In this document: one piece after another, positions 411 to 59,993 of the stretch
Position numbering within the stretch: the stretch's first letter is position 1
Layout: each line of letters begins with the position of its first letter
From: Obrimoposthia wandeli
Lineage: Eukaryota
Direction: 5' to 3'
DNA: 64,000 nt
Assembly (NCBI GenBank): GCA_977020255.1
Contig: CDROCS010002180.1
Coordinates: forward strand, 124,001 to 188,000
Translations under genes and position numbers: made by a program
Notes under the pieces: generated by a model
Seen by the model: the letters and a program-made list of their open reading frames with translations, nothing else
What the model was told of the DNA's origin: nothing
Databases searched by the model: none

Positions 411-414
411 AAAG

Positions 415-621
415 GAAGGATGGAGTCTAGATCACTTGACCCCCCCACCCCTCCCCCCTAAAGGGTGTCACACCATAAGGATGTCTTGCCACACCATACG
501 GGTATATGTTGCCTCACCGGAGGTGAGGCAACATATACCCTTATGGTGTGGCAAGACATCCTTATGGTGTGACACCCTTTAGGGGGGGGTCAAGTGATCT
601 AGACTCCATCCTTCACCTACT
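415..621 (-). mobile_element. Putative Maverick/Polinton-type terminus: ~200-bp palindrome plus terminal AGTAGG
   Basis: Arms 415-518 and 522-614 around a 3-nt loop (gga); cctact at 616-621 reads AGTAGG on minus, like the 35422/37410 termini. The palindrome is certain; the Maverick assignment is inference. Confidence 0.6.
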
Positions 622-1399
622 CCTTATCAAGCCTACTCTTCCCCAACACCATCCCGACAATATATATATGTGTGTGTGTGTTTTGGTTTGACCTTAACAA
701 TACCCTTCATAATCAGGACGACTTCGGCAAGGCTCTAGACTCAATGCGGACTGACAATAAGGTGACATTGAAGACCCTCTCTAAGACGAACAACCCGATT
801 CTGAAGAAGAGACAAATGAAAACAGCACCTGAAGCTATTCTTGAGTGATTTCAGCGGGAAACCCAATTATAATTCCTGGATCCTTAGACTCACTTTACTT
901 TGGCTGGGGCCAAGATAGGGGTGTTAACTCCCTTTGAATGATGTCTAAATTGTTGAACATTTAAGAATTTCGTTCCGTTTGGGGATCTAATGCTCCTATA
1001 TCATTCTGTTAATTTTTTATTCCATTTGGATGTTTTTTCCCTGTTACTGTTCACTCAGAATCATGCGAACTTTGTTTTATAGAAGAAGGCCTTAGCGCCA
1101 TTTGAATTCATAGACTTTCTCAAGTTTGACTTTTCAATTATTAATTCACGAGCATTGATGCCTTTTTCCAATTACACTAGACTTTTTCGTGATCCTCTCA
1201 TATGTTAGTAGAAAAATAAAATTATTATTGAATATCTTTAATAAACATTGGTTTATCATCAAAGTTATTATTTCTTTAAAACTGTATTGCTTTAAAGAAT
1301 CAACAAAATCCAGCTTGGCCGAGCAACTCTCGGCTTTATACGAATAGCATTCCAATCAAAAGAACTTCAATTGACTAGTCAGAATAATACTGCTGCTGC

Positions 1400-1860
1400 C
1401 ATACCGTTATGCAAACTCATCCCCGTTCATTATTTTTATCCCAGATTAACACCGCATTTCCTTTTATCAACGGACGTTTCTCTTCAAACCACTTTTCACT
1501 CCTTGAACTCTCTTCCTTCTCGGTTGCAACCGTCTTGGTGTGTCTGATAAAAAGCAACAAAAATCTCCGGTTTCAATTACAAATTATTAGTCCACAAATT
1601 ATTAGTCCATTCTCTCTGTCGAAACCTGATCACTTCGACTGGAACCCAGGTAGATTTCTCCTTCAACTGCAATTTGCGTGTAATATTAAGACTTACATAA
1701 CTTGTGGTGCTTGTGTCATCTAAAAGAGCATTTACTCGAAGAGCTCTTCCATTACTTTCTAATATAATTGATACCGTCTGCAAAGCCACCACTCCATCCA
1801 TTTCTACTTGAGTAACGAATATTGCGTCATCATAATATTTTTGACCGACATTCATGTTCT
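1400..1860 (-). mobile_element. Bel/Pao LTR retrotransposon remnant (aspartic protease joined to DUF5641-like C-terminus)
   Basis: VNALLDDTSTTSYV (Pao protease motif) at 1577-1855; then in another frame KWFEEKRPLIKGNAVLIWDKNNERG*, resembling the Pao post-integrase domain. Confidence 0.7.
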
Positions 1861-2457
1861 CTTTGACTAGATGCGTTAACCATTTGAATTACTGCTTTTC
1901 TATACATCTTGTCATATCTATCGCCTTTATTAAGTAATTGAACTCATGACATAAGTTTCTCTACTATTCGATTTATCTCTCAATAAAGGCATTAAATATG
2001 GAACATTATCTCTCATATTCTTTAATTTTACTTCCGAAATCGGAATAGTCAACTTTTTAATTAAAATATTTGAAATTACTTTAAATTTGGTATTCATTGA
2101 AATTATTTTGATGAATTTAGAAAACACATTGAATATAAATTAGTTTTAATGAACTCAAATTGAAATTTGGTTAACATATTAAGGTCAGTATAAAGAGAAT
2201 TTCATTAGAATACAAAAATATAGAGTCCATAAATGGTACACCCAAAGTCCGAGTTGACAAATTAAAAATAATCTTCGCCAATTATAACAGTTTAACTAGG
2301 AAATATGGAACTCTGTTGACGTCGAATTTATTCTGAAACAAAAGCAGCCTGTACGGATTAGCTGCAGTAACTGCCAGATAATGTAAAACACGATACTAAA
2401 ATATTTGTGTTTGTTTTGAAATATAAACAATTTTGAAGATATGAATTGTGTAATATA

Positions 2458-10845: not shown

Positions 10846-10859
10846 GTTGCATCATTTTG

Positions 10860-12013: not shown

Positions 12014-12039
12014 CTTATAAATTTTAGTAAGCCGAAGTT

Positions 12040-15470: not shown

Positions 15471-16949
15471 CATTTTTTCCCATAAAATCGATACAACTAA
15501 ATTCAAACTTGTTTTCACCACAACACATAAGTTTTTGATAAGTTTTAACAAAGTCTTTCTAACACTGATAGACATAAATGAAATTTAGGATCCCAAAATT
15601 TCCCTTTTTATGTAGAATGGCGGTATACCATAGGTTTGTGGGCTTTTTTATTTTAATTATAAATTAACATGTTTACATCTTTTTACATTGATCAATCTGC
15701 AATGTATTCCGAAAAAGTTAAGAAAACTAGAATTTGCAAATAAATGTTTTTCCTCTGTTTTTGGTAGAGTTCATACGGAAAGTAGGGTGTGCAAAAAAGG
15801 AAATGTCACATATTGCCATTTTAGAATTATATATTCTATTGGGTTTGTCAGTTTTTTAAAAAATATTTGTGAATCATATTTACTTTGTAAGCATTTAAAA
15901 CAGTACGTATCTAATTTTTATTTAGAAATATATTAATCATAATTAAAATGTTCAATGTGTAAGCTGTATAAATTATAAATTTAACGCATATTGGGGAAAA
16001 TATCGGCCTGCTTTGCACTATTCAAAGGTTAATATAAATAGGCTGTAAATATTCTAAATTATTTTGGAATCGTTTAAACGAAATCTGTCTTGTATAATAT
16101 ATAATAAAACGAAGACAAAATGTAACAATATAAAATACATGTTAGAGACAAACAATATTAAATATAGACTGATGAGGACATTAAACTCAATAATAAAATG
16201 CCGAAGCACAACAACATTTCAAATAGAAAAAGAAATAAAGTTAAAATATAGAAGTAATAATCACTACTGTATTATAGGATAACAATTAGATACTATTTCA
16301 GAACTAAAAATGAAGGTTTCATAATAATTTAAGATTATAATTAGCATTCGTTTGACTGGTTGCGGTTAATAACTAGGCTTTCTGTTTTAAACTTTATCTT
16401 CGTAAAATTTTGAAGTTTCTTTGATCTTTATTTATCTTTAGTCTTGTTTTTACTGTCCAACATTTATTAAAAGTTCTACTTCGTTTGCAACTTAGAAAAT
16501 GAATTAAAACTTCAATAGATCGTTTTGTATTTTCACACGCAATGTTGCTCTTATTCACATCTAAAGTGTAAAATTTGTCAACCATTTCCCTAAACTTATT
16601 TGAATCAAATATGTGGTGATATGAAATATATTCTCTAATTGTTTTTATAAATTCTGATGCATTATTCACATATTGTCCAGTGATGATTCCAGCTTTCACG
16701 AAAACTTTGGTGATAGATGAGACTGATACCTTGTCACAGGCATCGACGATTCACAGGTAGATAGAGGCGTAATTAGCTCGGCATTGCCTCCCGCATTGGT
16801 AAAGGTGCGCTCACCTTCTGTCATCTACTGCTCCCACGTGGCTCGCGATTTAATCTTGAATGATCTTTAACACTAATATCTTGCGGTTGGACTTCTTTGA
16901 TTAACCCTCCCGGAATGATGGCGAGCTCTGAGTTAGTTTATCTGTAACA

Positions 16950-17849: not shown

Positions 17850-18230
17850 GTTCTTCCTTACATCTTTAATGATATATTTTTTATTGTTTGTTGTTGCACT
17901 TGATGCTTGAATTTTCGTTTTCTTCTATAAATTATTTCAAACAGTGAATAATATGAAGATTGTTGCATTTATAGAAAATTAAATTTGTGGCAATAAATCG
18001 TGCCAACATTTTCCTATTTTAGTATACACTAATGTTAATAAGATGTTGTTAGCTCCTGTTCAATACCAAATTTTCGTAGCCAATTCTGAAAATAATTTTC
18101 AGTAAATATTCGTTCTCTATTAAAATGGTCTTAGGTTTCCCAAATTTATATATCTAATTTGTCTCGAGTGCTTTAGTAATTGTTATTTCATCTTCTTTTG
18201 TAGTTCCTGATAGTGATACCAGTTTAAAAA
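17850..18230 (-). pseudogene. Gypsy integrase fragment
   Basis: YKFGKPKTIL...FTENYFQNWLRKFGIEQELTTSY across frameshifts. Confidence 0.6.
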
Positions 18231-18890
18231 ATTTCAAAAATTCTAAAAATAATTTTTCAAAATTTTAATACTTTAGAAATTTAAAAAAAATTTCACAAGA
18301 AAAGTTTTTACTCAGAGATATTTTAGAAATTTTACAAAAAAGACAAGACAAAATGGATACAAATATTTATTAGACAAAAGAGAAAAAATTAGGTACAATA
18401 AATTTGTGACATAAATTCAAATATACAGAAACAATCATTCAAGTGAAAAAACATCTGGATATCGGTGATGTCCGTAGGCAACTTACCGGTTTTTCTCTAC
18501 CAATTTTCTCTTATCATCATTGCTACTCAATGCGATCTTACTCATATTTACGGTATAGAGCTGGTGATTAATTCAACTAATGCGTTGTTGTTGCACTCGT
18601 TCAATAACCTAACTCATATTGCAGCTAAATAATGCACATGGCGTAGCGCAGTCTGTTTAAGGCTAATTCCCTTTGCTCTCATCTGGGACTATCCGTATAT
18701 TGTTTCTAAGCTATATGATTTCGGGCGTAAAAATACCCGTTACTTATATCTACAGACACCCTTACTCTAATCCTTAAACTTGACTATCGCAATATTGGCT
18801 AAAGTAAATAAAGGATAATTTATAGGGAGTTTCGATGTGTCTAATAACCCATCCGAAATCATTGCTGGTAACAGTGTAGCTAGCACATCT
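18230..18890 (-). mobile_element. Maverick-type pPolB 3' fragment; inverted paralogue of ~36200-36800
   Basis: Roughly 90% nucleotide match by eye to the reverse complement of 36200-36780, including KDE, KIALSSNDDKR and the downstream non-coding sequence. Confidence 0.9.
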
Positions 18891-19690
18891 AGTTTTTGTT
18901 GTTGCACATTTAGTTGTAAATGTTCGCTTAGCAGAGGGTTTGTGACCTCTAGAAAATGTATATGTTCGGCTAAAATCGTAGGGCTATTCTCTAGGGTTTT
19001 AATCGTCTACGTTTACTTTCAAAATAATTTTATCCGAATCAATATTTTATTATGATGACAAATATAACTAAAAATTATACTCAAAATCTAACCAATACGA
19101 ATGCCTAGTGGGCTATTTTTGGTTTACAGAACTGGCAATGTGGTATAAAACAAACATTCAGTTAAGGTGTTTGGTTCATTCCACATTGCCAGTTCTGCTT
19201 ACACAAATAAGATTTATTTCATTTCCATTTATTGTTGTAGTTTTTTAAAGTTTAAATTTATTTAATTTTTATTGCTTATATTAAGGCGGCATAAATTAGT
19301 TGATTTTTAAATGCGTCATTAATTTGTCGGACTGCTTAGCTTACCTGCAGATTTTGATACGGTAAATAATGATATTCTACTACGTGAAGTAAATAAGCCC
19401 TTAATGAGTCAGACGTCGTTTATAGAAAACAATTAGTGGTGATGGGAAGTATTTTTAAAAAGGAGTACTCTAAATTGTTGAAATCGTGGATTCATTTATA
19501 TGTTTAAATTATACTATTCAATTTTAGAAGATATTCAACAAACATGTACCTAAATTCCACTTTTATACTTATGATATTCAAATGTACATATAATTCGATT
19601 CGGAAGATAGTATTCGATTATTTGCTCAATTCGAAAACCATATGAATATACTGAAAAAATAGATTCTAAGAATTAAATGAGAGTAAAATA

Positions 19691-22400: not shown

Positions 22401-22419
22401 ATAGCAAACTGTCTGATTA

Positions 22420-23590: not shown

Positions 23591-24370
23591 TTATATTAAA
23601 GTGCAAATAGGTCCAACATAATTATACTGGTTTTCAGTTTCAATTTCCTTCAAAATATCACCAATGCAAGGACAATAGCTTCTGTGGTAATGGTAAAGTT
23701 CGAAGAACTGTTTCTTCAATTGGCACAGAATCTGTGTAACATTTCTCAAAAAATTATCGTCACCAGTATCGGAATCCAGACAGTACTTGACAATCTCCTC
23801 CAAGCCCATATTCGTCCATGCCGGATCGAATTTGACAGCATTGTTTCCCTTGTAAAATGTATTTCTCGACAATTTATTTACCTCCCGCAAAGGTGCAAAT
23901 TCCGGTGCTACTATCAATTGATCTTCCATACCAACCCACTCTGTCACACGATCGTCCACAATCACGAACAGATCTAGCAGTTCATGAGGAAACATGGCTC
24001 GAAAATAATGGCTTTTATTTAGGTAACCCTGAAAATCTGACCGACAAAATATTCGATTGCCGAAGTTCACTCCTAGCGGATCGATAAACCCCAGAACGTA
24101 GTTCGCGTAATCGTGGGTACCCTTGGTAGCTACACATAACTCGAAATCGTCACTCAATTTTTCAATTGTCGTTTGCAAGAATGGCCTTTTCACTAACACG
24201 TCGCCTGTGTTTTGCTTGTTATCAAACTCGACGCGTTTGTTGCAGGTGTCAACCTTAAGATCAAAGATGTTAGCATAAGAAACTAAAGTTTCGTCAAGGT
24301 CCAGTATCAGAATCAACTTTTTATTTTCAATGTAATAAGACTGGCTATGAAAAAATTGCTGAGGGAGCAT
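23591..24370 (-). CDS. Intronless FCP1/CTDP1-like HAD phosphatase (FCPH domain only), copy A, 259 aa
   Basis: KKLILILDLDETL (DxDxT), KRP, ATKG, FGNRIFCR, NK, VDDR, DDNFL...FF; no BRCT; ORF intact. Confidence 0.9.
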   Translation of the reverse strand: MLPQQFFHSQSYYIENKKLILILDLDETLVSYANIFDLKVDTCNKRVEFDNKQNTGDVLVKRPFLQTTIEKLSDDFELCVATKGTHDYANYVLGFIDPLGVNFGNRIFCRSDFQGYLNKSHYFRAMFPHELLDLFVIVDDRVTEWVGMEDQLIVAPEFAPLREVNKLSRNTFYKGNNAVKFDPAWTNMGLEEIVKYCLDSDTGDDNFLRNVTQILCQLKKQFFELYHYHRSYCPCIGDILKEIETENQYNYVGPICTLI

Positions 24371-25272
24371 GCTGTATTTTGCTATGAATAATTTTAGTTT
24401 ATTTTAGATTATATGTGAAAATATTACTTCAAAAGTATTTAATAGAAAGGAATACATTATGTAATTTGTATTATAATATATTTCCCTAAAATATCTACGT
24501 CACCGAATGAAGATTAGTTACGTTTACTGTTGTTGGGTTTTTCTTTAAACTGTTTTTGAAGCCTCTCTCAATTGGGGTTTTCTGAAGGCTAAATTTGTTG
24601 TGTTGTGTGAATTTCTATGTAAAATGTGATAAAAATCGTAACACATTCAAAATCTGGTGTTGTGTAGAGCTTTGTTGAATAGTCGTTTAGGCGTATGAGT
24701 TAAGGCTTTAATAATAGTCTTGACTGTGATTAGGAGATTTGGACAAACCAAGAGCAATTTAGAGCCTGTAGCGTATAACGATTACTGTATGAGCTCTAAA
24801 CAACAAGAGTCAATGTCACCAAGTCACTACACTCACAGTAAGTGCAGATCCAAAAATGGCTGTCTAGTCCTACTAGTTGGTTCTTCTCGAATGAGTTGTT
24901 TTAAAATTTTAAGATTAAAATGATTAAAGTTTAGCTTATATCAATAAAATGCATAGACTATACTCTTCTACATTTGCTATTAAATTTTAACATTTTCTGT
25001 ATATTTTTCTGTAGTCAATTTGATGTCAATTTGGGTGAACAAAAATATATCAATAAATAAAATAAAAATCCATTTGATAAGTTATAAATACTCAAAATCG
25101 TCAACTAAAATGACAACAATTCTTGGTTTCTTAAAGTACCAATAGTTGCTCTTTTGGGCCCTTGCAGCTTATCCAGGTTCAGTTATTTGGATATATTGTT
25201 CTGTTTAAAAATCAAATATTGTAGCCACTCAAGAAGTGTAAAGTGTCGGTTCGAAAATAATAGCACACAAGG

Positions 25273-26769: not shown

Positions 26770-26849
26770 AAGGCACCCCCTAGAACAAGGAACGAAGAAC
26801 AAAGTACCTCTGAATATGCATTGGATACTTTAATACTTTATTGCTCTAT

Positions 26850-31312: not shown

Positions 31313-31404
31313 AATTAATTAAAAAAATTAATTTTTCTTTTAGAAACTTCTAATGTAATCGAATATAAAAAACACATATTTTCAAAATTTTATATATGTT
31401 ATTA

Positions 31405-35639: not shown

Positions 35640-35811
35640 AGGAAAGAAACATTAATGAAATATTTTAAACAGACAAATAAAATTATCAAAGAAAATATTC
35701 AGAAAGGTGGAAAAGTTTTAGTATGTGGTCATTATGGAATACATACTGCTGTAGGAATTGTTATAGCCTACTTATCTCTTTCTATGTCTGTTAGTGCTGC
35801 TAATGTTTTTG
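35640..35811 (+). pseudogene. Dual-specificity phosphatase-fold fragment, STYX-like (Gly at the catalytic Cys position)
   Basis: YFKQTNKIIKENIQKGGKVLVCGHYGIHTAVGIVIAYL, compared with the STYX-type GGKVLVHGNAGISRSAAFVIAY. Confidence 0.65.
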
Positions 35812-36664
35812 CAAAGTATATTGAGGATAATTCCGCGAAAACGGCTAGTTATTCGAGAATATTATTAATTGAATGTTAATTATCTGTTTGGTAAGTTAAT
35901 AGAGAATTTAATGAAGAGAATTAACCTCCGTATTTGTAATACGCCACAAAAGCTTGTTACCTATTGTAGTAAGGCCCAATTCCGTAGGACGATGGAAATC
36001 GACACAAACGTAATAGCTGTTTTACTAAATATGCAAAATGTCGTTTTAGATCGTCCTAGTTATATTGGTCAGGCAGTTCTGGATTTACGTAAGTTAAGGA
36101 TGTATGAGCTTCAATATGTTCAATTAGAGAAATATAGATGTCAGTTTAATTGCGACATTCGAATAATTGCTGGTGACACTGACAGCTTTTTTCTAAAGTG
36201 TGGTAATGTAGATGTACAAGCTACACTGTTGCCAGCAATGATTTCGGTTGGGTTATTAGACACATCGAAATTCCCTATAAACCATTCTTTATTTACTTTA
36301 GCCAATACTGCGATAGGCAAGTTTAAGGATGAGAGTAAGGGTGTCTGTAGATATAAGTAATGGGTATTTTTACGCCCCAAATCATATAGCTTAGAAACTA
36401 TAGACGGAAAGTCCCAGGAGAGCAAAGGGAATTAGCCTTAAGCAGACTGCGCTACGCCATGCGAATTATTTAGCTGCATATATGAGTGGGGTTAGTGAAC
36501 GAGTGCAACAACAACGCATTAGTTAAATTAATCACCAGCTCTATACAGTAAATATGAGTAAGATCGCATTGAGTAGCAATGACGATAAGAGAAAATGGGT
36601 AGAGAAAAACCGGTCAATTGCATATGTACATCACCGATATCCTGATGTTTTTTCACTTGAATGA
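35812..36664 (+). pseudogene. pPolB C-terminal third (Maverick/adintovirus type)
   Basis: LFGK..EN, SYIGQAVLDL.KLRMY, AGDTDS, GKFKDE, RPKSYS, KG, ALSSNDDKR; has a stop and frameshifts. Confidence 0.95.
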
Positions 36665-36779
36665 TGGTTTTTGTATGTTTGAATTTATATGTCACAAATT
36701 TATTGTACCTAATTTTTTCTCTTTGGTTAAATAAATATTTGTATCCAATTTGTCTTTGTCTTTTCTAAAGTATAAAAAT

Positions 36780-37045
36780 TCAGTGTAAAATTTTAATTCT
36801 AAAGTATAAAATTTTAATTCTAAAGTATAAAAGTTCTGTGTAAAATTTTATTTATAAAGTTTAAAAATTCTGTGTAAAATTTTAATTCTTAAGTATAAAA
36901 TTTTAATTCTAAAGTATAAAATTTTAATTCTAAAGTATAAAAGTTCTGTGTAAAATTTTATTTATAAAGTTTAAAAATTCTGTGTAAAATTTTAATTCTT
37001 AAGTATAAAATTTTAATTCTAAAGTATAAAAGTTCTGTGTAAAGT
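36780..37045. repeat. 21-bp (aaattttaattctaaagtata) and ~110-bp higher-order subterminal repeats
   Basis: Seen directly; aagttctgtg at 36831, 36941 and 37030. Confidence 0.9.
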
Positions 37046-38247
37046 TATATTTTTAAACTATTAAAAAAATTGTAAAAATTATGTGTTAAATATTATTTTT
37101 AAAGTATAAAAAATTTTGTAAACAATTTTATTTTCTGTAAAAAAAAATTTTTTTTTAAATTATAAGATTTTTTTTTTGTTGGAAAATATTAAGTTTTTTA
37201 TCTGAAAATTTTAAGAAAATTTGATTATTAAAACAAAATTTTGACCTTGACACGTGCCGTAGTTGCCACGGCAACAATACGTACATGTGGCAAGTGCCAT
37301 GACACGTTCCATGGTGTGTACGTGCCATGACACATGACTTGTTGCTAGGGTCTTCTGGCTGACTTGCACACAGGGCGGGGGGTGAGCCAGAAGACTCACT
37401 TCCCCCTACTGGAGGCCAAGAAATAAATAGTAAGACAAAATAAAAGTAAGAAGAAAATAACTTAATTGGAAATCAGAAAATTATAATTGAAAAGACACTA
37501 AGGAAAGGAAAAAGCAGCAATTAAATGAAGCGCGTGAGAAAATCTTCACCTGGGACTAAGTGCAAATAAAAGGAAGCACTCAGACAGTGCGTAAGAAAAT
37601 TAACAGAAAAATCGCCAGCTTTAGTCGATGAGCAATATCTCTGGGCGGAGAGTGATAATGTTTGTTCGAGCGTGTGTGTGTGTTTTTTGAGTGGAAAATC
37701 TCATACACGCAGATTTTTTTCTGGCCAAGCTCATTTTAAATCTTCTCGAACAATCATCGAGCTTCTGCTGTGTCTGTGTGTTCCTAATAGTGAGGAAGTT
37801 TCCACGAAAGTCTATTAGTGGTCGTAAGGTAATTTTATATAGTACTAAGTTATTACAGAACTGTATTTGAAATTTCAGAAAATTCAATAAGAAACACAGA
37901 AGTAAATGATTGTATATAATTTGATCAAAGATTTGATTTGCGTATTAATTGGAATAATTAGGAACAAGATTTGGAAGAAGAGTAGCGTAAATTTTGATAA
38001 TTAAAATCTGATTTTTAGAACTGTATTATATTCAGAATTGAATTATCTCAAGTTAAACGGATATATATTGACAGGAGCACAAGTGAAAATTGGAAAATTG
38101 TTGGAGGAACTTGGATTACATTTTAGACCATATTATTATAATGATTTGAACCAAATCAGGATATTAATTTGAAACTGGTGAGGCTAGTAGAGATTTGATT
38201 TGCGTATTAATTGGAATAATTAGGAACAAGATTTGGAAGAAGAGTAA

Positions 38248-40799: not shown

Positions 40800-41299
40800 T
40801 AAAGGTCATGACCATATCTTAAAACCTTTAAGTCAAAACTGACTCTGACCCTTTCATCTATGGTCGATCACAACCCTTTAGATATGATGGCCAACCATAG
40901 TTGACCTCAACTATACATTTAAACATTCAAGTCAAAACTGAGTCCAACCCTTTCATATATGGACGACCACAACCCTTTAGATGTGTTGGTCAACTATAGA
41001 TGGTCATGACCATACCTTCAAACCTTCAAGTTAAAACTGACCCCGACCCTTTCATCTATGAACAACCACAACCCATTGGGTATGTTGGCCGTACATAGAC
41101 GGTCACGACATACCTTCATAACCTTTCTGAGCCAGACCCGTATGGTGTGGCTAGACACCCCTATGGTGAGTTAAAATATACACTCACGGTGTAACATCCT
41201 ATGGTGAGGGAACATATACATTTATGGTGTGACACCCTTTAACATGGTATGCGCATACAGGGGGACCCCAGTGGTATAGACTCCATTAAAGTACTTACT
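40800..41299 (-). mobile_element. Second terminus of the 138-621 family: ~100-bp tandem array, tatggtg units and AGTAAG end
   Basis: Units at ~40800, 40900, 41000 and 41100 containing gaccctttcat; tatggtgtggc.agaca.cc.tatggtg, gacacccttta and agtg.t.tagactccat match 542-610. Confidence 0.65.
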
Positions 41300-43599: not shown

Positions 43600-43900
43600 T
43601 TTCATTAATATTATACAGAAAATGAGTGTAAATCTGTATTTGCTGAAAGATTTATTTTAACATTAAAAATAAAATGTGGAAACATTTTACTGTTCAAGGA
43701 AATCCAAAATGGAATAATGAATTATTACAAAAGTTAGTAAATGAATATAATAATAAACCCGACAGTTCAATTAAATTTATGCTTTTTAAAGCTAGTGAAA
43801 ATCCTAAATTTGTTGAAAAAATAAAAAAAGATAATAATAATGATAATGATGATAAATCTATAAAGAAACCAAAATTTAACATTGATGATATGGATAGATT
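43600..43900 (+). pseudogene. Maverick-type retroviral-like integrase, C-terminal fragment
   Basis: YTENECKSVFAERFILTLK[frameshift]KMWKHFT...KW...LVNEYNN...KPKFNIDD. Confidence 0.75.
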
Positions 43901-44410
43901 TTTTTTAATTTATGAAACATTTTGTACTGTAACTTCTTTAACCCTTTATGAATTGCATTAAAAAAAGTATGATAACAAATCAATAGTCACCTGACAAGCA
44001 TACAAATAGTTGTTTTTGAAAAGGTTTCTGTGCATAGTTTTTTAAATCATTAAAGTTTGTCACATTTTCTAGTTGCAAAAATATATTTAAATTTAATCTA
44101 ATGTACCGAGAATATATTAGACACGGTACATTAGATTAAATTTCATTCATCATGAGTAAGGACTGCAAAAAATGTTAAACATTTCGAAAAGAAATTAAAA
44201 TTGTTAAATTATTTTATTACTATTGTCTTTGTTTTAAAATATGAAAAAAATGAATATATTTAAAATCTGTCTCTAAGTACATATTTTTTAAATTTAGCAA
44301 AGAGCAGAAAACAATTGAATAATTATGAGCTTATATGATGTTAATTGTGCGAAGTAAACAATATTTTTAAAATTCAGGTTATGAATAGTTAATATTCAAT
44401 TACTCTAAAA

Positions 44411-44733
44411 CAGCGGTTTCCAAAACGTGGGGCGCGATCCCCATGAAAGGCTACTGATTTTCTGAAGGGTCGCGTTAAAATATCTTTAGATATTTTAAAT
44501 AAAATTATTGAACATTACCATGAAAGAGTAATCTTCAATAATTTTAAGAAGCTATTTTTTTAAGTTAGAAATTTTAAAATAAGTAGGCCTTGAACCTTTC
44601 GAGGATTTAAATTTGTTTATTAAAAATAGCTTGTGAATTAATAAATATAATTACGTTACTAATTTTTTGAAGAATATGCAAAAGTTTTCTCTTTTTTTAC
44701 TGGATTGCCTTCCAAAATGTTTGGAAACCGCTG
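44411..44733. mobile_element. hAT (Charlie-like) MITE
   Basis: TIRs CAGCGGTTTCCAAA; perfect 8-bp TSD ctctaaaa (44403-44410, 44734-44741). Confidence 0.95.
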
Positions 44734-45866
44734 CTCTAAAAGATTAAAATTGTGTCAGGAATATAAACTACAAAAATTGTTATATAAATAAGATAAAAAA
44801 TCATAAAAATGACCAAATATATATTTAAATTTTATTCCAATTTATTAAATTGTGTGAACAGCACTTTAGCAATGTTAGATTCACTGAGTTGCATCATTTG
44901 ACTGAAAAAATAAGCCTATATTTTGAAAAGGATCTTTCCACATCAGCTCTAGTTAGTGGAAGAAATCGTAATTTGATCGTTCTTTTTACAATCATGGTAT
45001 TTAATCTTCTCAAATTTGGCTTTTTATTTATAGCTCATTCTAATTTCTGTAATTTCTGACTAAAATTATCATCAGTCCAAAATATGAAGAACTCAGAAAG
45101 TTCCTGAAACCCGAGATCTTCGAGTTTTATGACACTAAATACCTACAATTCTATATGACTCCAGAAGTAATATTTCAGTAATATCTTGTTGAAGACTTTG
45201 AAATAACTTAAATTGTTCACAAGTAGTGTAAAGTGTCATTTCTCACACATAATCAGATCCTTGGCACAGACGCCCCTGATGAGTTATATGCTGATCTGCG
45301 AGAATTCGGGATTTCTTAACAGCTGCAACAAAGTACAAGTGACTTGACCTTTGTTCGCCGCTAATAAGGAATCCTGCATTTATGCACTTAAACACACAAC
45401 TCATCGGGGGCATCCCGGCTAAAGATCTGTTTATGGGCACCTTACACTACTTATGAACAATTAAAGTTTTACAGGAACATTGAATTTTAACAAACAGATT
45501 ACCATTCAAAATCATTCATTTTTATTGATTATTACAGAAGTTGTTCACTATAATTGTACTTACAGATGCAATACAAACCGGATGCAATTACAATACAAAA
45601 ACATTTAAATACTAACAAGCGCAAATGCCTACAATCCTAACTTCCTTGTGTATGATATATATTACACTAATGATTTCTGATTCCTATCAATTACCCCACT
45701 TGTCAAAGTATAACAGGCTAACTCCATTTTGTCTAACCCTTAGGTTTGGTTTTCATTCCCAGTAACCCAAAGTTCCTGAATAGTTGATGTTTCCTGCGGG
45801 AAGACTTTTCAACCAAATTTGGATATTGTCGGTGAATGAAATTATGAATAAAGGAATCATCATCTA
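44549..45866 (+). repeat. ~1.3-kb segmental duplicate of 52884-54200
   Basis: Collinear match starting inside the hAT MITE and spanning the micro-element. Confidence 0.95.
45222..45451. mobile_element. 230-bp micro-element with AGTAGTGTAA(A/G)GTG Maverick-like termini
   Basis: Terminal sequence is nearly the same as mini-Maverick 1; GC-richer interior; no direct TSD. Confidence 0.6.
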
Positions 45867-46302: not shown

Positions 46303-47396
46303 TTCAACGTTAATAACATCATCGTCATTTGCACTCGGCCATGAGCTGCACGAGTTTTACACGTTCTTTCAATGAAAACATTTCCAATCTATAAATAAGT
46401 AAAAAGGGTCACATGAGTGTATAATTTTGATGTATTAGTTCTGTAAATATAAATTTTAATTAAAGATTTTATTGCGTTTTCAAATAGGAAAGTGACTTTT
46501 ATGACCTCCATTATCATGACTATTTTAAAATTTATTTCCGCAAAAATGTCGCCATATGCGTAATAACAATACATTTTTGGATACAAAACTACGAACATCA
46601 GAGCTGAGTTCATATATGATGTTTCAAAGTTTGGCACATTATCTGGAAACTGAGAAGTTGATCTTGATGGTGGATCTCGACGAGACACTGCTTTGCAGTG
46701 CTGATCTATTTGACCTTGACGTCGTTATCAATGACAGGGAGGGTGTGTTTATTAGCAGAAGTGGTAACCACCAGACAGTGACTGTGTTGCGTCCTTTCAT
46801 GGCGGACAGTCTGTGGCAGCTCAGCCAGCATTTTGAGCTGTGGTTGGCCACAAACGGTGGACAGAAATACGCAATGGATATGCTGAAAATCATCGATCCG
46901 AATGCTGAGCTATTCGGAAACCGGGTGTTGACTCGCTCGGATTTCGGGGCCAGGCAAATGAATAAGATGCAAGCAGTGGAAAGGCTTTTGCCATACAAGC
47001 TCTCGAAAATTGTGATAGCTCTGGACGACAGACTGGACGTGTGGAGTAACTGTGAGTTTGTGCTACAGATAGCTCCGTTCTCGCCGCTGGTCAAACTTAA
47101 GATGGAGATTATGAACCGGTTTCTGAATACAAACTATCCGGTCTTTCTGGAGCCAGTCTCGCGCCAACTGTCGCTGCAGGACAAGCTATACCACTCTCTG
47201 AACGATGAATGCTGCAGCCAGGACAGATTCCTCCTCCATACTACCATGAAACTAGTCAATATGAAGTGCGCTTACTTTGATCTGGTGAGGCGCCAGCAAA
47301 ACAAGCTTCCTTACGTAAGCGACTTCCTGAAAAATGTTCAATGATAATTATACATTTAGTGTTCTCTCATATTTTGACTCATTTAACTACAATTTC
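46303..47396 (+). repeat. Segmental duplicate of 33969-35062
   Basis: See partner copy. Confidence 0.95.
46616..47344 (+). CDS. Intronless FCP1/CTDP1-like HAD phosphatase, copy D
   Basis: Same motifs as copy C; ORF intact; about 17 aa differences from C by manual count. Confidence 0.9.
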   Translation: MMFQSLAHYLETEKLILMVDLDETLLCSADLFDLDVVINDREGVFISRSGNHQTVTVLRPFMADSLWQLSQHFELWLATNGGQKYAMDMLKIIDPNAELFGNRVLTRSDFGARQMNKMQAVERLLPYKLSKIVIALDDRLDVWSNCEFVLQIAPFSPLVKLKMEIMNRFLNTNYPVFLEPVSRQLSLQDKLYHSLNDECCSQDRFLLHTTMKLVNMKCAYFDLVRRQQNKLPYVSDFLKNVQ

Positions 47397-48870: not shown

Positions 48871-49406
48871 TATGAAATTAAATCCTAGTATTTTAAGTTA
48901 TTACCGAATTTTGCTTTATTACTTGAATACGTTTTGTGAATTGAATTATCGGAAGAATTATCATAAATAGTTGATAGAAAGTTATCGTTATCGTTGAAAG
49001 AAAGAGAGGGTTATCTCTTGGTTACGGTGTGTTGACATAATTTGTTGTTAGACAACCTACTTGTCAATTTGTGAAAACCTTTTTAGTTAGCGTAATAATA
49101 TAGTTTTTCCTACAGTTCAACTAGAATTATTTCAGGTACTCACATATAGCTGTAGAGCACTACCAACCAAGTTACACATCACACTTAATTAGTGGGAACC
49201 ACATCAGTTATATTTGTGAAAAAACTCTTTACACATCTTACAAAATATCTGCATAAACGTTCAGATTGAGAGTAAGTTAAGTAAGACAAAACCTAAATAG
49301 GCCACATCCATATGTAAACCCTATTGCTACAGAACTCACGTTGGGGGCCTCCATAAGAGGATCTATCTAAATCATAGTTTTAAATAGAAACCCCAACATA
49401 TTAAAT

Positions 49407-52540: not shown

Positions 52541-53556
52541 TTCAGCTTAACAAAGTGACAGTGGAAACACTGATATAACTGAAGTTTAGAACAAGACACC
52601 CACACCTGAGGTGAACGAAAATGAACCACAAATTGTCGTACCGAACAATGAGTTGACAAATTTAGTAGACGAGGTACAACCACAACAAGTAATTAGTCAA
52701 ACTGGACAGGACCAAATCACGAACGCAGCCGAACCTGTTAGAGAAGATGAAATCTCAGAAATTGTAGACCTGGATTCACCAATTTGGCATGTCGCATACA
52801 GAGACAGACAAGCTGATCAAACGGCACGACAAAGTGAAGATATACGATATAGCGATGAGCTGTATAATCAAGCAGATTTTTCAAAGCTATTTTTTAAGTT
52901 AGAAATTTTAAAAAAAGTAGGCCTTGCACCTTTTAAGGTTTTAAATTTGTTTATTAAAAATGCTTTTGAATTAATAAATATAATTACGTTACTAATTTTT
53001 TGTAAAGAAAATGCGAATGTTTTCTCTTTTTTTTACTGGAGTGCCTTCCAAAATGTTTGGAAACCGCTGCTCTAAAAGATTAAAATTGTGTCGGAACATA
53101 AACTACAAAAATTATTATATAAATAAGATAAAAAATCATAAAAATGACCAAATATATATTTAAATTTTATTCCAATTTATTAAATTGTGTGAACAGCACT
53201 TTAGCAATGTTAGATTCACTGAGGTTGCATCATTTGACTGAAAAAATATGCCTATATTTTGAAAAGGATCTTTCACATCAGTTGTAGTTAGTGGAAAAAA
53301 TCGTAATTTGATCTTTCTTTTTACAATAATGATATCTAATCTTCTCAAATTTGGCTTTTTATTTATAGCTCATTCTAATTTCTGTAATTTACGACTAAAA
53401 TTATCATCAGTCCAAAATATGAAGAACTCAGAAAGTTCCTGAAACCCGAGATCTTCGAGTTTTATGACACTAAATACCTACAAGTCTATATGACTCCAGA
53501 AGTAATATTTCAGTAATATCTTGTTGAAGACTTTGAAATAACTTAATATGTTCACA

Positions 53557-53786
53557 AGTAGTGTAAAGTGTCATTTCTCACACATAATCAGATCCTTGGC
53601 ACAGACGCCCCTGATGAGTTATATGCTGATCTGCGAGAATTCGGGATTTCTTAACAGCTGCAACAAAGTACAAGTGACTTGACCTTTGTTTGCCGCTAAT
53701 AAGGAATCCTGCATTTATGCACTTAAACACACAACTCATCAGGCTAAAGGTCTGCTTATGTGCAAGAAGTGACGCCTTACACTACT
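53557..53786. mobile_element. Second copy of the 230-bp AGTAGT-ended micro-element (inside the segmental duplicate)
   Basis: Same termini and flanks as 45222-45451. Confidence 0.6.
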
Positions 53787-55234
53787 TATGAACAATTAAA
53801 GTTTTACAGGAACATTGAATTTTAACAAACAGATTACCATTCAAAATCATTCATTTTTATTGATTATTACAGATGTTGTTCACTATAATTGTACTTACAG
53901 ATGCAATACAAACAGGATGCAATTACAATACAAAAACATTTCAATACTAACAAGCGCAAATGCCTACAATTCTAACTTCCTTGTGTATGATATATATTAC
54001 ACTAATGATTTCTGATTCCTATCAATTACCCCACTTGTCAAAGTATAACAGGCTAACTCCATTTTGTCCAACTCTTAGGTTTAGTTTTCATTCCCAGTAA
54101 CCCAAAGTTCCTGAATAGTTGATGTTTCCTGCGGAAGCCTTTTCAACCAAATTTGGATATTGCCGGTGAATGAAATTAGAAATAATGGAATGATCATCTA
54201 ACCAGTTTGTATCTCTTTTATCAAAGTACTGCTAGACGTCTAAATTGTTGCGAGAAGTAGATCTTATGACTCGGCGAATCAAGTGACTCAAGTATCTTCA
54301 GGGTATCCCTCATATAACTCGAGTTACTATATAGAATTTTCCTGCCACACATGACAACGAAATAAAAGCCAATATTATAACAAAATTGGCAGATTAGCCA
54401 GTTGTGGGTAACTCTTCTTTGTTCCACAATACTATTTGGCGTTGTGTGGTAACATTTTAAATTTATAGCATCTCCAAAAAACATATAGTCGATGTTTGTC
54501 ACCCGGTTTAAAGAGAAGAGTTAAGTATACATTTAATTAATAATTATGATGGACCAAGACCCAGAAATAAGCAGTTGTCAGGGAGGTTGCCGTAGTAATG
54601 TTTGGGAACAGTCGATATTACCTTATAATTACTGAAGTTCATTAATGTCTTTTGATGAAAATTTCTTCATATCACAAAAATCGAATGACATTGCCAAATT
54701 CACTTCAGAAAAATTTAAATCAGGCAGAAAAATATCGATACATTCATGACTTCCGAAAACTAATTTTAGTTACTATGTCTGTATCTATATATTTTCTACA
54801 CATTTTATATTCTGATTTTCAAGATTCGATTTTGAATAAAAATTATCAATTTAATGGGCTTCAATGGGATAATACTTTTGAGAAAAATATAATAAAAATT
54901 TATAAAAATAAACAAAAAAATAAAATTTGTATAAATCTCTTCATACTATATACACATGTTTGTTGTTGTGAAAATCGAATACTACATCATCAACATCGCT
55001 GTACAAAGATAGATAGAGAGAGATAAAGAAATGGGTGCTAGAATCAGATATTGCACATAGATCTAGAGTGCTTCTAAGGCGTTGTCTAAAAGAGGGAGCA
55101 TGGTTGGTCACAATGTTGCTCCCTCTCGAGTCGATAGGCAGCGCCATGACCCCAGTAGCTGCATTGAATGTGCGAGGCCTAAAAAACATGAATAAACATT
55201 TAATCATTTTAGTATACCATTTACTCTCAATCTC

Positions 55235-55800
55235 ATTGATTTTTAATCACTATCTATCATTACCTAATTTCTATACACTCTCTCTTACTCATTAACTCGA
55301 GGAATCACTCACTCACTTTCTCAATATCTATCATTCCCTAATTATTATACACTCATTCTCAATCATTAACTCAAGTAGTCACTCACTCACTATCATTCAC
55401 TAATGTTTATACACTCACTCTCACCCATTAACTGGAGTAGTAGCTCGCTCACTTCCTCACTACCTATCATTCCCTAATTATTATACACTCACTCTCACTC
55501 ATTAACTGGAGTAGTAGCTCGCTCACTTCCGCACTACCTATCATTCCCTAATTATTATACACTCACTCTCACTCATTAACTGGAGTAGTAGCTCGCTCAC
55601 TTCCTCACTACCTATCATTCCCTAATTATTGTACACTCACTCTCACTCATTAACTGGAGTAGTAGCTCGCTCACTTCCTCACTACCTATCATTCCCTAAT
55701 TATTATACACTCTTTATCACTCATTAACTCGAGTAGTCACTCACTCACTTCCTCACTATCTATCATTCACTAATGTTTATACACTCACTCATTCACCCAT
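55235..55800. repeat. 74-bp minisatellite (~8 copies), probably 3' of the cullin-5 stop before the Maverick insertion
   Basis: attaact at 55427, 55501, 55575, 55649 and 55723, with degenerate outer copies. Confidence 0.95.
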
Positions 55801-56375
55801 TTCGTCGCTTTCATTCAATCGGTCATTCAATTAGTATATAGTGTGGGTACCAACACTATAGTCCTTAAAAACGTCTAAATGTCGAAAAAGTACTCAAAAT
55901 TACTCATCAAGTCCTGAAATCAGGCATACTAATTCAAGGCAATAGGTCCCCTGAGGAGGTACCTTTTACTACAAAATCTATTTGAGCCAGTATGCGTTTT
56001 TTACAGACTTATCCAAAATTTAATCACGAAATCGCGCATAATAACTCAATTCAATAGACCTCCCCGGGGTACCCTTTGCTGCAAAACTATTTTTAACGTA
56101 GTATGTACGATTTCAAGTATTTTTTTAAAAACGCACTATTTCTCACAGATTAAAACAAAATTAGTTTAAGTAAATGATTTTAAGTGACCAAATTCTCCTA
56201 AGAGAGGAGTCCTTCACCCGAAGACCGGGAAGCACCTTTGACAAAGAATATATTTAGAATACTTTTGTTTATAGAAAAAGTATTATATACAAGTGAATGA
56301 ATAATAATAATATACAAATTATGATATACATTAAATAACAACAATAACAAAACTATATATTTTATTTAAAAATTA

Positions 56376-58630
56376 TTAAGTTAAATTAAAATGACCATAA
56401 GCAAGGCTTTTGTTCTTACTAAACCATCTCATTTTATCGTCAAAACATTTTAAAGCAACTTTAGAGGTAAATGTTGTATGAAGCTGATGGTTAACCGATG
56501 CTATACGTGACTGGTTAACACTAATAATTTCTTCATTTTCATAACAATTGAGGTAGTCTTGGTGTCTTAAATTAGTTTGTTTTAAAGAAATACCTTTAGC
56601 CCTTAATTAATTTTGAAGTGAATAACATTTTGGTTTTAACAAAACTCACTCATTATAATCAGTACCCTCACTTTCATCTTTAAATTTTCCAATTACAGAT
56701 TTAAAGTTTTTTTAATACAATGTATGTGTTTTAGTGTAATTACTCGAAATAAATACCCATCCTTAATCATTTCGTTGAGTAATTTATCCTTATCAATATT
56801 CAAACACTCAAGGAAATAAGAATCAGTGTCCATAGTTACAATTCGAAAACTACAATTAAAAGTTTGCCTATACCGTTCAAGCTCAACATATTGTAATTGA
56901 TACATTCGTAATTTAGATAGATCAAGTACAGCTTGGCCGATATAGGAAGGCCGATCTAAACAAATTTCCTGTTTCTGCATAAAAACTAAATTTAAATCAT
57001 CATTTATTTGACTATGACGTTTAAACCAAGGAAACGAAACTAAGTTTTAAACCCGTTTATTGTTATTACATAATCTAATATCAAGCCGCATCTTAAGATT
57101 CTCAACCGTTTTACCGAAAACGGAATTATTTTTAATTTGTAAAACTCATATTAAAACTTATTAACACTAGTTGCCCGTTTGTTTGAATTAAAATCTATTA
57201 TTGTTTTAAAACGGGCGCTTGTCTAAACCGAATAGCCCTATGAATTTTCAAGATTTCAGCACGATGAAAAACATAGAATTGTAGTAAACGAAAAGAGTAT
57301 TACATAATGCTCTTTATCATTATGTATTAAAAGTAATTTAGGAGTTTTTTAGTTTGGTGGACACATTTTATGTGGTTCAATAGGTAAGTCATCAACTCTA
57401 TTATGTATACGATCCGGAATATGTAAATCTACTTCAACAAGAAAAATCATGCGGTTTTACTCAAATTCTTTTCACTTCCAACTAAATTCAAAATATCATC
57501 AAAATTACGATGATACAGTTCGAAAACCAAAAAGACATTTCTGACGTCAGTAAAGGCGTAAACCATAGCTATGACAATTAAATAATCTATTTAAATGAAT
57601 ACCACAATAATGATAAGTGTTACGGTCTTCTAACAAAAGTAAATTAACAATTTGATTACAATCCCGTAGTTTTATTCGGTAAATTATACTAAAATCAGGA
57701 TTTTTCACCACATCTTTAATCGGGTATTTACTTTTAATTTCAGAAAACTGTAATTGCTATATGGTTATCACGTTCAAATTGAGGTATTGAGGCTAAGGAC
57801 ATAGGACCTGGTGGACATATTAACTAATTTAAATATTGATCATATGAAGATGATCAATCTCTATTTTGAACTTCATTATGTTTTAAAACGCTAAGGATAG
57901 CCTAGAGAAAACATTTGTTATCCTCGTTTCTTACATTGATTATTACCCTTTTATTTAAAAATTTAAGTGGTGATGGTATATATGAAGAACCTGAAACACT
58001 AGATAATTTAGTTAATTTAAAGGAAATTTGTAATATTTTATGGATTGACCAACCACCATTCAATTCCGAGAACTATTCAATACAATTATTTAACTTGTCA
58101 GTTCTAATAACAATAAAATCATCATAGAAAACATCAGCCTTATAACTAATATGTCATATTTTAAATTGGTTTTCTATGTTTACAAATTGAGCTTGAATAT
58201 CAAATTGGATTTTACAAGGTCAAAATGGATTAATTTTATTTAATAACTCATTTTTCATATCATTATTAACAACCAGTTTTAGCATATTCTGGTTAGATGC
58301 AGTATCAAAAATAAGATTATCTTGAAGTGCACCACCATTTTGAGTATCATTATTTGATATTGCTTCAAGGCCTACAGTTTCTAATAATTCATTATAAAAT
58401 TCATCAACAAATGGATTTGCATGTGTATAAAGTAAATCATTAAAACCTGGAGATTCATTTAAATACTTATCTAATTCATTATCCTGGAAATCATTTAAAA
58501 ATGTAGTGAAATCAAAAATATTATTAAAACTATCAACTGGTATTATATTATTAATTGTTTCTAATTTTATAACTTTATTACTTTTTGATGATTTACGCTT
58601 ATAATTTGATTTCTTGATATTAAAATAAGT
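56376..58630 (-). pseudogene. Protein-primed DNA polymerase B with internal deletion
   Basis: SGSSYIP...IINVRNEDNKCFL; EVDLHIP; YKLKNNSVFGKTVEN; SYIGQAVLDLSKLRMY; MDTDS; FKDE; KPKCYS; AKGI; ALKCFDDK. Many stops; no exonuclease-region motifs recognised. Confidence 0.95.
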
Positions 58631-59007
58631 GATTTTTATGATTAGAATAAAAATCTAAATATTTTATGTTTGTGAACAATATATCACCCGAGGGACATAT
58701 GTACCCGTTTTTAAACTTATAATATTTTTTCATAACATCATGAAAATTACTAGTACAATAGTTATAAAGTTTACATGGTAGGGAACCACAAAAATTTAAA
58801 AAAACACACTAATTAAAGCGTCATTAAACAATAAATCACCTAACCTATCATCAAAGTTGAATGATGTACATAATCGACTAAAATATAATGTTCGGGTTCC
58901 ATATATTTAGTAAATTTTCAGTCTTTTATCAGAGCATCTTGTGAAATTTTAAAAACTTTAAAACAATTTGTGTTAATATTCATTAAACGATCATTATAAC
59001 TAGAATT

Positions 59008-59221
59008 AACACCAAACATTTTAGGAAAAACAGTGACAACTTGTGCTTCGTCATATAAGACATCGCTAACCTTGTCACAACAATTAAAAGACTTCCCATT
59101 TTGTTTAAAATATAATTTGCGTGAACCAAACGCAATATAAATTTTTTCAGTCAGGTCTCTAATCAGGTCCAATTTTTATTTGCTTAACGGAATGCAATAA
59201 ATCAGCATGAATTGTTAACTG
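59008..59221 (-). pseudogene. Ubiquitin-like domain (one frameshift) inside mini-Maverick 3
   Basis: QLTIHADLLHSVKQIKIGP[frameshift]DLIRDLTEKI..FG..KLYFKQNGKSF...VSD....AQVVTVFPKMFGV. Confidence 0.55.
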
Positions 59222-59993
59222 TTCTAGCTCCTTTTTAGTTTCTTTCTTTTTAAAGCGTCGTTTCAGCTTATTCTTAAGGCGCTTACCCCGTTTACCTAAC
59301 ACTTTAACTTTGGTTATTGATTCAACATTTATATTATCTCGTGCATCACGATGATAATTTTTGTATGGAGTAATCCCGTTTACTAAAATGACTTAAATAA
59401 TTAAAAGGATACGTGTTTGGGCTGCCTATTGATGTAACATGATAAGGTTTTTTAAATGAAAAATATTAAGTGTTGTTATTGTAAGTAGATGATAACACCT
59501 CCATTACTCCTAAAGCTGGGAGCCATTATCCGAAGACAGGGCAGTGTTACCATTACCTCTTAGGAGGCTCCGTACGGGAGACTTTGGTCACTTAAAATAA
59601 TTTACTTAATCTAATTTTGTTTTTTAACGATAAATAACGCGATTTTTGAAAAAATACTTGAAATCGTGTATACTACGTCAAAAATGGTTTTGCAGTAAAG
59701 GGTTAGTATGCGCGATTTCGAGACTAAATTTTGGTCAAGTCTGGAAATCACGCATTCTGCCTCAAATAGATTTTGCTGTAAAAGGTATCCCCTCTGGGGG
59801 ACCTATTGCCTTGAGTTAGTATGCGCGATTTCAGGACTTGATGAGTAATTTTGAGAACTTTTTCGCCATTCTGTCTACATTTAGACGTTTTTAAGGCCTA
59901 TAGTGTTGGTACCAACTAAAAGGAACAGAGCCTCCTGGGAGCTTTGTTCCTTTGAGTTGGTACTGACACTATATACTACTCAATCACTCACAT

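Follow-up and report, generated by a model that had tools for sequence, protein, structure and literature searches.

Palindromes beside the terminal hexamers of decayed Polinton/Maverick remnants in a 64-kb genomic stretch

The window, by which we mean the whole 64-kb stretch of DNA analysed here, contains three decayed Polinton remnants, referred to as B, C and D, and a truncated relative of C, referred to as G:

25232-27923: element B, remnant of a decayed Polinton, flanked by CACTCA and TACTCA
25232-25272, plus strand: left end of B, hexamer AGAAGT and the first piece of a single arm
25273-26769: TGT...ACA insertion of about 1.5 kb, solo-LTR-like, with a 4-bp AAGG duplication, splitting the left arm of B
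26770-26824, plus strand: left end of B, second arm piece, stopping at about the hairpin apex
26825-27435, minus strand: pPolB fragments of B, about aa 820-1015 of homologues
27768-27917: right palindrome of B, 150 bp, imperfect, directly abutting hexamer 27918-27923
35422-37410: element C, remnant of a decayed Polinton, flanked by GCGGGC and GGAGGC
35422-35638, plus strand: left TIR of C, missing a GC-rich subterminal stretch of about 150 bp
35730-36637, plus strand: C-terminal pPolB fragment of C
36773-37127, plus strand: AT-rich tandem array in the right TIR of C
37245-37397: right GC-rich subterminal block of C with short hairpins, including a 13-bp stem at 37348-37397
18229-18907, minus strand: element G, a relative of C, truncated and without its terminus; pPolB C-terminus, 87-92% DNA identity
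55830-59980: element D, remnant of a decayed Polinton, flanked by CATTCA and CAATCA
55837-55860: left end of D, leftover 24-nt palindrome, about 50 nt gone between GTACCAAC direct repeats
56382-58775, minus strand: pPolB fragments of D, from the N- and C-terminal parts, lacking about aa 493-952
59899-59973: right palindrome of D, 75 bp, set 1 nt in from hexamer 59975-59980

B, C and D are old Polinton/Maverick copies with internal deletions, and their assignment to Mavericks in the first-pass annotation is upheld by pPolB fragments, end motifs and 6-bp flanks. The pPolB fragments of B, C, D and G are 30-62% identical to PF03175-type homologues, and the TIRs (about 190-220 bp in C, about 370-400 bp in D and about 90 bp in two pieces in B) fit the 100-1500 bp of Polintons. 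Of the Polinton end motifs, (AGT)2 and (AG)3, the former is exact (AGTAGT) at the right end of D, and the other ends are one-base variants. The TSD-like flanks are imperfect (5/6 in B and in D, chance 0.009 each; 4/6 in C, chance 0.06); among five lengths, 6 bp fits best in B and D and ties in C. Animal Polintons, as described in PMC8097293 and PMC10748475, likewise combine pPolB with a 6-bp TSD, an (AGT)2-like end and TIRs a few hundred bp long, and 96% of the vertebrate loci reported there are eroded as B, C and D are. None of rve integrase, ATPase, protease or capsid was recognised in the scanned ORFs, including those of B, C and D, an absence expected of deleted copies; ORF 58921-59175 of D had no Pfam match, and its Atlas leads were all sub-0.9. 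Part of the insertion in B is similar to 49255-49398. Each of the three elements is single-copy within the 64 kb, with stops inside the pPolB pieces and a TIR divergence of 9-11%; we therefore read these short elements as ordinary decayed copies, and the non-autonomous mobilisation system suggested earlier is unsupported.

Two further ends with a terminal hexamer, A and E, are probably of the same kind as those of B, C and D, and no pPolB is in view for either:

130-414, plus strand: inner tandem array of A, 26/52-bp units, the array itself at 130-388
415-614: palindrome of A, 200 bp, near-perfect, 3-nt loop
616-621, minus strand: terminal hexamer AGTAGG of A, a right end whose partner lies beyond the window, with neither gene nor TSD in view
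40804-41299, minus strand: end E, hexamer AGTAAG at 41299, related to A

The first-pass annotation had described palindromes just inside such hexamers, within 0-7 nt. Long ones are confirmed in A, B and D, and the insets, measured from the hexamers ending at 621 (A), 27923 (B), 59980 (D) and 37410 (C), are 1, 0, 1 and 7 nt, respectively. The palindrome of A has 92 paired positions, 1 mismatch and an 11-nt indel; that of B has 56 paired positions, 9 mismatches and 16 gap columns; and that of D has 31 paired positions and 4 mismatches. A, B and D take ranks 1-3 among 109 AG(T/A)AG(T/G) sites (palindrome scores 30, 24 and 20; a score of at least 15 at 1/400 random positions). The stem of C is present (12/13 paired), but taken alone it is marginal (score 11, rank 7/109; 5/400 random positions as high). 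Folding of 230-nt windows gave z values of -27.0, -8.3, -7.1 and -4.2 for A, B, D and C, and as low a fold was seen in 0, 0, 0 and 2, respectively, of 150 control windows with a GC of at least 0.30. In the predicted folds of A, B and D the last 6-7 nt beyond the stem are unpaired (P 0.73-0.99). Under our own version of Halocafeteria-type palindrome settings (arms of 20+ with at most 4 mismatches and a gap of at most 10), A, the inner part of B, and D pass and C fails; the whole window gives 15 matches, and the 4 with GC >0.3 all lie <=250 bp from these ends. Searches of Rfam and of a phage collection gave no match.

Chance, or a fold-back artefact of assembly or amplification, is a most improbable source of these structures. 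The near-perfect arms of A would suit an artefact, but the arms of B and D show 11-14% divergence as well as indels and are similar to the far end of their own element, and the statistics are far beyond chance.

The four termini were first taken to be independent, with the architecture alone conserved. This does not hold for B and D, which have a common terminal core: of 4851 null pairs, 0.9% reach their similarity score, and the motif AAGGAAC.AAG occurs 3 times in the window, each time in B or D arms. A kinship of A and C, suspected by eye, is unsupported, as 38% of null pairs reach its score. The tandem arrays reported inward of A and C were found at 130-388 and 36773-37127. The units of the A array are outward-facing, diverged copies of the first 28 nt of the palindrome (19/21 to 23/28 identity to the arm start). 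E has the same units in direct tandem, with a 99-bp array inward and without a long palindrome; it crosses the position of the A apex in direct tandem, and 6/150 controls fold as low. Altogether 8 ends from 5 elements are recognisable, of which 3 have a long palindrome, 2 a short one and 3 none. The end at 41299, the 24-nt palindrome at the left of D and the insertion splitting the left arm of B had previously been overlooked.

Several other loci were considered. Two fold-backs, F1 and F2, are found between E and D:

45205-45468: F1, old palindrome, 260 bp, B-type terminal core and hexamer at both ends, no TSD
53543-53799: F2, copy of F1, within a 1.3-kb duplication

ORF 43647-43958 resembles by eye what we take to be the motif of a Polinton integrase C-terminus, but Pfam gave nothing and a homologue search 0/64 candidates; since this reading failed, the palindrome at 44087-44145 was left out of the count. 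A scan for copies elsewhere, in a collection of genome contigs, returned a sole locus from 36 pattern matches, and it was rejected, with no pPolB match, TIR or match to the window.

In B, C and D, as first noted, the opposite TIR has lost or halved its palindrome (3/3). All three breakpoints lie inside the palindrome: at the apex in B, in the outer arm with GGTC microhomology in C, and between the GTACCAAC repeats in D. Moreover, the palindrome survives on the pPolB-3' side in C and on the pPolB-5' side in B and D, so there is no fixed polarity. Because the breakpoints fall within palindromes and polarity to pPolB is not fixed, the asymmetry is best read as decay by deletion. The right palindrome of D includes about 40 nt without counterpart at the left end, and was therefore not copied from there.

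The left arm of B bears on a parvovirus-like rolling hairpin, self-priming and resolved into flip and flop forms. The ends of parvoviruses and AAV are imperfect terminal palindromes that reach the extreme end, self-prime, need Rep and occur as flip and flop. B resembles flip/flop, in that its left arm agrees with the inner arm at 9/10 diagnostic substitutions (two-sided p 0.021), but a palindrome at the extreme end and self-priming are not found in A, B or D: the hexamer outside the palindrome leaves an unpaired 6-7-nt 3' tail, which cannot prime. The flip signal comes from one element, a 14-nt indel in the B left arm sides with the outer arm (giving 9:2), and gene conversion between the left and inner arms of B explains 9:1 as well; the apparent flip sites of C and D were rejected, each being a single site at a deletion junction. 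No Rep/HUH gene was seen. Although a model of this kind is put forward for virophages and PLVs in a preprint (bioRxiv 10.64898/2026.07.28.741278), we regard it as very unlikely here.

We tentatively favour, at a little under an even chance, an inherited TIR palindrome that was cut down after integration and that folds on the displaced strand, leaving the hexamer tail for protein priming. The active parents can fairly well be inferred to have had TIRs with the hexamer and then at once an imperfect palindrome that stayed self-complementary through family divergence. During strand-displacement replication by pPolB, the 3' end of the displaced strand would fold into a hairpin and so rebuild a duplex copy of the terminal core next to a single-stranded 6-7-nt tail, and this tail would be the template for terminal-protein priming. 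The hairpin would locally take the place of the long-range panhandle, in the manner of the folded 3' overhang at protein-capped Streptomyces telomeres and unlike the self-priming hairpin of parvoviruses. After integration the palindrome probably became a deletion hotspot, cut down at one end to give the present asymmetry.

In line with this priming role, the arms of A, B and D end 0-1 nt from the hexamer and the tail is unpaired when folded. The TIRs of B and D do not align in the self-BLAST of the window and their pPolB DNA is 67% identical, yet their arm pairs are 86-89% matched. Since self-complementarity lasts in families with otherwise non-aligning TIRs, an inherited cis-feature, part of the conserved cis-element originally proposed, is plausible; its function is inferred and its role in mobilisation is unsupported. 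Transition mismatches place G.T on the 3'-end-bearing strand in 7/8 cases (one-sided p 0.035), a small, post hoc bias in which one site is perhaps common to B and D or due to CpG decay, and in which the count for B depends on the alignment (3:1, or 1:2 under another setting); the fold-backs F, at 6:9, have no clear bias. Both this 7:1 bias and the flip-like 9:1 of the B left arm lend weak support to the priming role. The pPolBs of polintons have a terminal-protein domain fused to the polymerase (PMC11161782), and 3'-overhang hairpins direct protein priming in Streptomyces (PMC4513846). Against it, the A-related end E is without a long palindrome, the C stem is marginal and 7 nt in, and the arms of A are near-identical, as in a recent fold-back. 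No intact element or second copy is at hand, so that no active parent is seen with a palindrome at each of its ends. The arm divergence of D equals its TIR divergence, both 11%, so that its arm mismatches may be plain decay. The Halocafeteria palindromes occur mostly with non-pPolB elements (bioRxiv 10.64898/2026.07.28.741278).

It is possible, if somewhat unlikely, that the palindromes are by-products of a polymerase that made a U-turn near the end, by template switch to the displaced strand or to the other panhandle arm, and then returned, so that the terminal segment was duplicated in inverted orientation; neutral fold-backs of this kind would arise repeatedly at a hotspot and be deleted later. 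This would suit the near-perfect A beside its unfolded relative E, the match of the inner arm of B to its left end at 9/10 sites, as a panhandle switch would give, and F as a fold-back taking in hexamer and flank. The same preprint offers accidental annealing after single-strand breaks as an alternative, and a reference title names, for the kalilo plasmid, a hairpin deletion derivative. A by-product does not, however, readily account for the dedicated inner sequence of the D palindrome, not found at its other end, nor for a boundary that is identical in three families; moreover, the outward-facing arm copies in the A array are 10-20% diverged, and the outward copy is therefore old.

A role of the double-stranded form is unlikely, either as a dyad of protein sites, for integrase or for an auxiliary origin, or as a cruciform that an EndoVII/HNH-like domain inserted in pPolB would cut. 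AACAAAG recurs as inverted pairs in B, D and F arms, and GTTGCC..GGCAAC inverted pairs occur in A and C only; these motifs presumably resemble SOX and RFX sites. PF02945 is found in 15/65 homologues and a DHxH..CN motif in 22/24 long ones. Dyad sites, however, need no continuous 35-95-bp arms, and the G.T strand bias is not predicted. The EndoVII/HNH-like domain falls in pPolB parts deleted from B, C and D, an EndoVII segment sought in the window was not found, and such inserts are treated as homing-endonuclease or intein relics in PMC11161782. Quite doubtful, too, is a hybrid end in the pPolB Polintons of animals, with a protein-primed hexamer and a flip/flop hairpin opened by the EndoVII/HNH-like domain; if true, one element would join protein-primed and hairpin-transfer replication, and that domain would gain a job.

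That the architecture is undescribed, as first believed, is weakened by the preprint. TIR palindromes adjoining TSDs are reported there for Halocafeteria seosinensis virophage subtypes 1, 2, 5 and 6 and PLV subtype 4, that of virophage subtype 5 being 52 nt (bioRxiv 10.64898/2026.07.28.741278). Like A, B and D these elements have a palindrome in the TIR, and the preprint contains the same hairpin-priming hypothesis together with a by-product alternative. They are, however, complete protist virophages and PLVs, preferentially non-pPolB, whereas B, C and D are pPolB elements of animal type with no capsid gene seen, and in A, B and D a free terminal hexamer lies beyond the palindrome, differently from the Halocafeteria ends as described. 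For animal pPolB Polintons, no report of TIR palindromes was found in the literature outside Repbase/Dfam and the 2006 founding paper; 'palindrom' has 0 matches in the main texts of PMC8097293 and PMC10748475. Casposons (PMC4046053) are also self-synthesizing PolB elements, some with internal palindromes in their TIRs, but they are prokaryotic and use a Cas1 integrase. Streptomyces telomeres (PMC4513846) share a protein-primed end and a single-stranded 3' end with hairpins beside the priming template. This is an analogy only: they have an internal origin, end patching by Tap/Tpg, several short palindromes and no integration, and B, C and D are no members of that system.

Replication, excision and integration of Polintons are still inferred from models. 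If the palindromes are by-products, they would still be a record of polymerase slippage at ends, of modest interest. A fixed end of hexamer and hairpin would name a concrete cis-element and a testable step, namely panhandle-free re-initiation on the displaced strand. The 2026 virophage/PLV observation would also carry over to pPolB elements, most of which lack the feature according to that preprint's suggestion, and the lopsided decay of TIRs would be explained.

Five elements, A to E, possess ends or remnants of the Maverick/Polinton type (probably so for A and E), with the terminal hexamer AG(T/A)AG(T/G) in A to D. The window is AT-rich eukaryotic DNA and probably comes from an animal, as judged from a cullin fragment closest to Cullin-5, genes for NIF phosphatases, RT/integrase pieces of retroelements and remnants of DDE transposases.

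End at 621: element A; palindrome 415-614
25232-27923: element B; palindrome 27768-27917
35422-37410: element C; palindrome 37348-37397 (13-bp stem)
55830-59980: element D; palindrome 59899-59973
40804-41299: element E (end at 41299), related to A, no long palindrome
18229-18907 (-): fragment G, truncated relative of C

Among 247 candidates, 65 proved homologous to the ORF at 35869-36357 (46-63% identity, mostly with PF03175), and the 24 exceeding 1100 aa were used to map pPolB pieces, interrupted by stops, in B, C, D and G. The TIR pairs have diverged by 9% in C and 11% in D, and the 6-bp flanks match at 5/6 positions in B and D (chance 0.009 each) and 4/6 in C (0.06). Vertebrate Mavericks, in the available text of one survey, have an (AGT)2 end motif that fits the ends seen here, and 96% of their loci are degraded (PMC8097293). 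Taken together, the interrupted pPolB pieces, diverged TIRs, flanks and (AGT)2-like ends therefore identify B, C and D as decayed Polintons. The Maverick identity proposed in the first-pass annotation thus holds for these three, while A and E, with neither gene nor TSD in view, are assigned from end motif and mutual likeness (E-value 4.5e-5). Every short form is single-copy within the 64-kb window, which leaves the mobilisation of such forms, as suggested in the first-pass annotation, a conjecture. D appears to be arranged as TIR, pPolB, small ORF and TIR, and its parent may have been naturally pPolB-only; ORF pieces without assigned identity lie upstream of pPolB (58918-59392, -).

Several neighbours were also recorded. 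A cullin C-terminal coding stretch (59994-60419, -; best match Cullin-5) stops 14 bp from the right end of D, and a 74-bp tandem array (55247-55790) lies immediately outside its left end. Diverged NIF/FCP1-like phosphatase ORFs are clustered (23591-24403, 30918-31349, 34210-35010 and 46529-47344), and 33969-35062 is duplicated at 46303-47396 (96%). A sub-cutoff Pfam match to the TcdA1 domain family (E 0.004; 16394-16750, -) is probably due to chance. The 71-nt hairpin at 19127-19197, of pre-miRNA-like size and 220 bp from G, has no match in Rfam.

All four reported palindromes are present where the first-pass annotation placed them. Hexamer-anchored arm scores rank A, B and D first to third (30, 24 and 20) among 109 AG(T/A)AG(T/G) sites, a score of 15 being attained at 1/400 random positions; C scores 11, equalled at 5/400. 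Fold z values over 230 nt are -27.0 (A), -8.3 (B), -7.1 (D) and -4.2 (C), with equally low folding in none of 150 control windows for A, B and D and in two for C. Settings modelled on the Halocafeteria preprint (bioRxiv 10.64898/2026.07.28.741278) give 15 palindromes window-wide, and all four with GC >0.3 lie <=250 bp from the A-D ends. The arm-to-hexamer gap is 1 nt in A and D, 0 in B and 7 in C. The palindromes are real and non-random, they belong to elements of a known type, and an artefact seems very improbable. Among all eight recognisable ends, three have long palindromes, two short and three none; 4/5 elements have one at some end.

The four palindromic ends are not all independent, as had been supposed. 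B and D are relatives: they share a terminal core, with a score that 0.9% of 4851 null pairs attain, as well as another motif in the arms. The layout of hexamer plus palindrome is shared by A-D and does not extend to the related end E, where A's repeat units run in direct tandem through the position of A's apex (the hairpin middle) and 6/150 controls fold equally low. E is flanked on both sides by parts of a retroelement pol, and its other end was not found in the window. GTTGCC...GGCAAC dyads, presumably resembling an RFX site, are confined to the ends of A (508-532) and C (37262-37275); AACAAAG pairs occur in the arms of B, D and F. That the palindromes act as a duplex dyad site or cruciform appears improbable.

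Two further copies of a 260-bp palindrome, F1 (45205-45468) and F2 (53543-53799), carry AGTAGT at both ends and a B-type terminal core (18/19 nt). Some 16 nt of flank are inverted too, there is no TSD, and the arms are 21-23% diverged; they may derive from a Polinton end that folded back long ago, or may represent a MITE-like unit. The idea that the palindromes in general are a recurrent fold-back by-product is rather unlikely, though it is the most probable of the alternatives. Nearby, 44410-44733 is a MITE-like unit, which we take to be hAT-like, with short inverted ends and, by eye, an apparent 8-bp flank duplication. A hairpin at 44087-44145 (28-bp arms) lies near an ORF (43647-43961) that we assume, from a motif seen by eye, to resemble a Polinton integrase C-terminus; Pfam and homologue searches gave no confirmation of this identity.

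The left ends of B, C and D are all reduced, as the first-pass annotation had noted for the opposite TIRs. The B left arm is interrupted by a TGT...ACA insertion and stops near the apex; this solo-LTR-like insertion (25273-26769) is flanked by a 4-bp duplication, contains arrays of 49/97 and 44 bp, and partly resembles 49255-49398. In C, about 150 bp are gone, starting at a microhomology, GGTC, that lies in the outer arm (nearer the hexamer), and in D about 50 nt are gone between GTACCAAC repeats, leaving a 24-nt palindrome. The sequence missing from the left end of D is present solely at the right end, which makes loss likelier than gain. The parent elements would have been symmetric. The palindrome is kept on the pPolB-3' side in C and the pPolB-5' side in B and D. 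Hairpins promote deletion, and the asymmetry probably reflects decay at an unstable structure rather than design.

Some patterns, considered post hoc, are weak hints of function. When the 3'-end-bearing strand is folded, the last 6-7 nt are unpaired in A, B and D. Transition mismatches become G.T pairs on this strand in 7/8 cases (B 3:1, C 1:0, D 3:0), a count that changes to 1:2 for B under local alignment and includes one site possibly shared or due to CpG decay (CpG o/e 0.87). The B left arm agrees with the right inner arm at 9/10 diagnostic substitutions (p 0.021; 9:2 counting an indel), a pattern compatible with a flip of the palindrome, with template switching at a panhandle or with gene conversion. 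A rolling hairpin is quite improbable. An EndoVII/HNH-like motif occurs in 22/24 long pPolB homologues, and PF02945 in 15/65 homologues of ORF 35869-36357; this part is deleted from B, C and D.

Kapitonov and Jurka reportedly described, in 2006, non-autonomous Polintons whose inverted arms are very long. The available text of the preprint cites that work for accidental annealing, describes TSD-adjoining palindromes in the TIRs of mostly non-pPolB elements, namely four subtypes of virophage and one of PLV, and puts forward the same hypotheses as here (bioRxiv 10.64898/2026.07.28.741278). Some casposon TIRs also contain palindromes, according to the accessible part of PMC4046053. The string "palindrom" is absent from the main texts, as far as available, of PMC8097293, 10.1101/2022.07.12.499685, PMC6431247, 10.1101/2024.01.15.575659, PMC11161782, PMC5499653, PMC8502044, PMC11296320, PMC10748475 and PMC12220804; in the available texts it occurs once, unrelated, in 10.1101/2022.07.28.501842 and once, as a figure-legend label, in 10.64898/2026.10.13.758929. 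No report of palindromes in animal pPolB Polintons was found in the partly available, non-subscription literature searched.

As the likeliest reading, at somewhat less than even confidence, we tentatively suggest that the palindrome was inherited as part of the TIR. On the displaced strand it would fold so that terminal-protein priming could use the hexamer as its single-stranded template, with a duplex copy of the core adjoining this template. A terminal-protein domain is fused to pPolB in the available text of PMC11161782, and Streptomyces telomeres, as partly described in PMC4513846, may serve as a working analogy for such a hairpin end.
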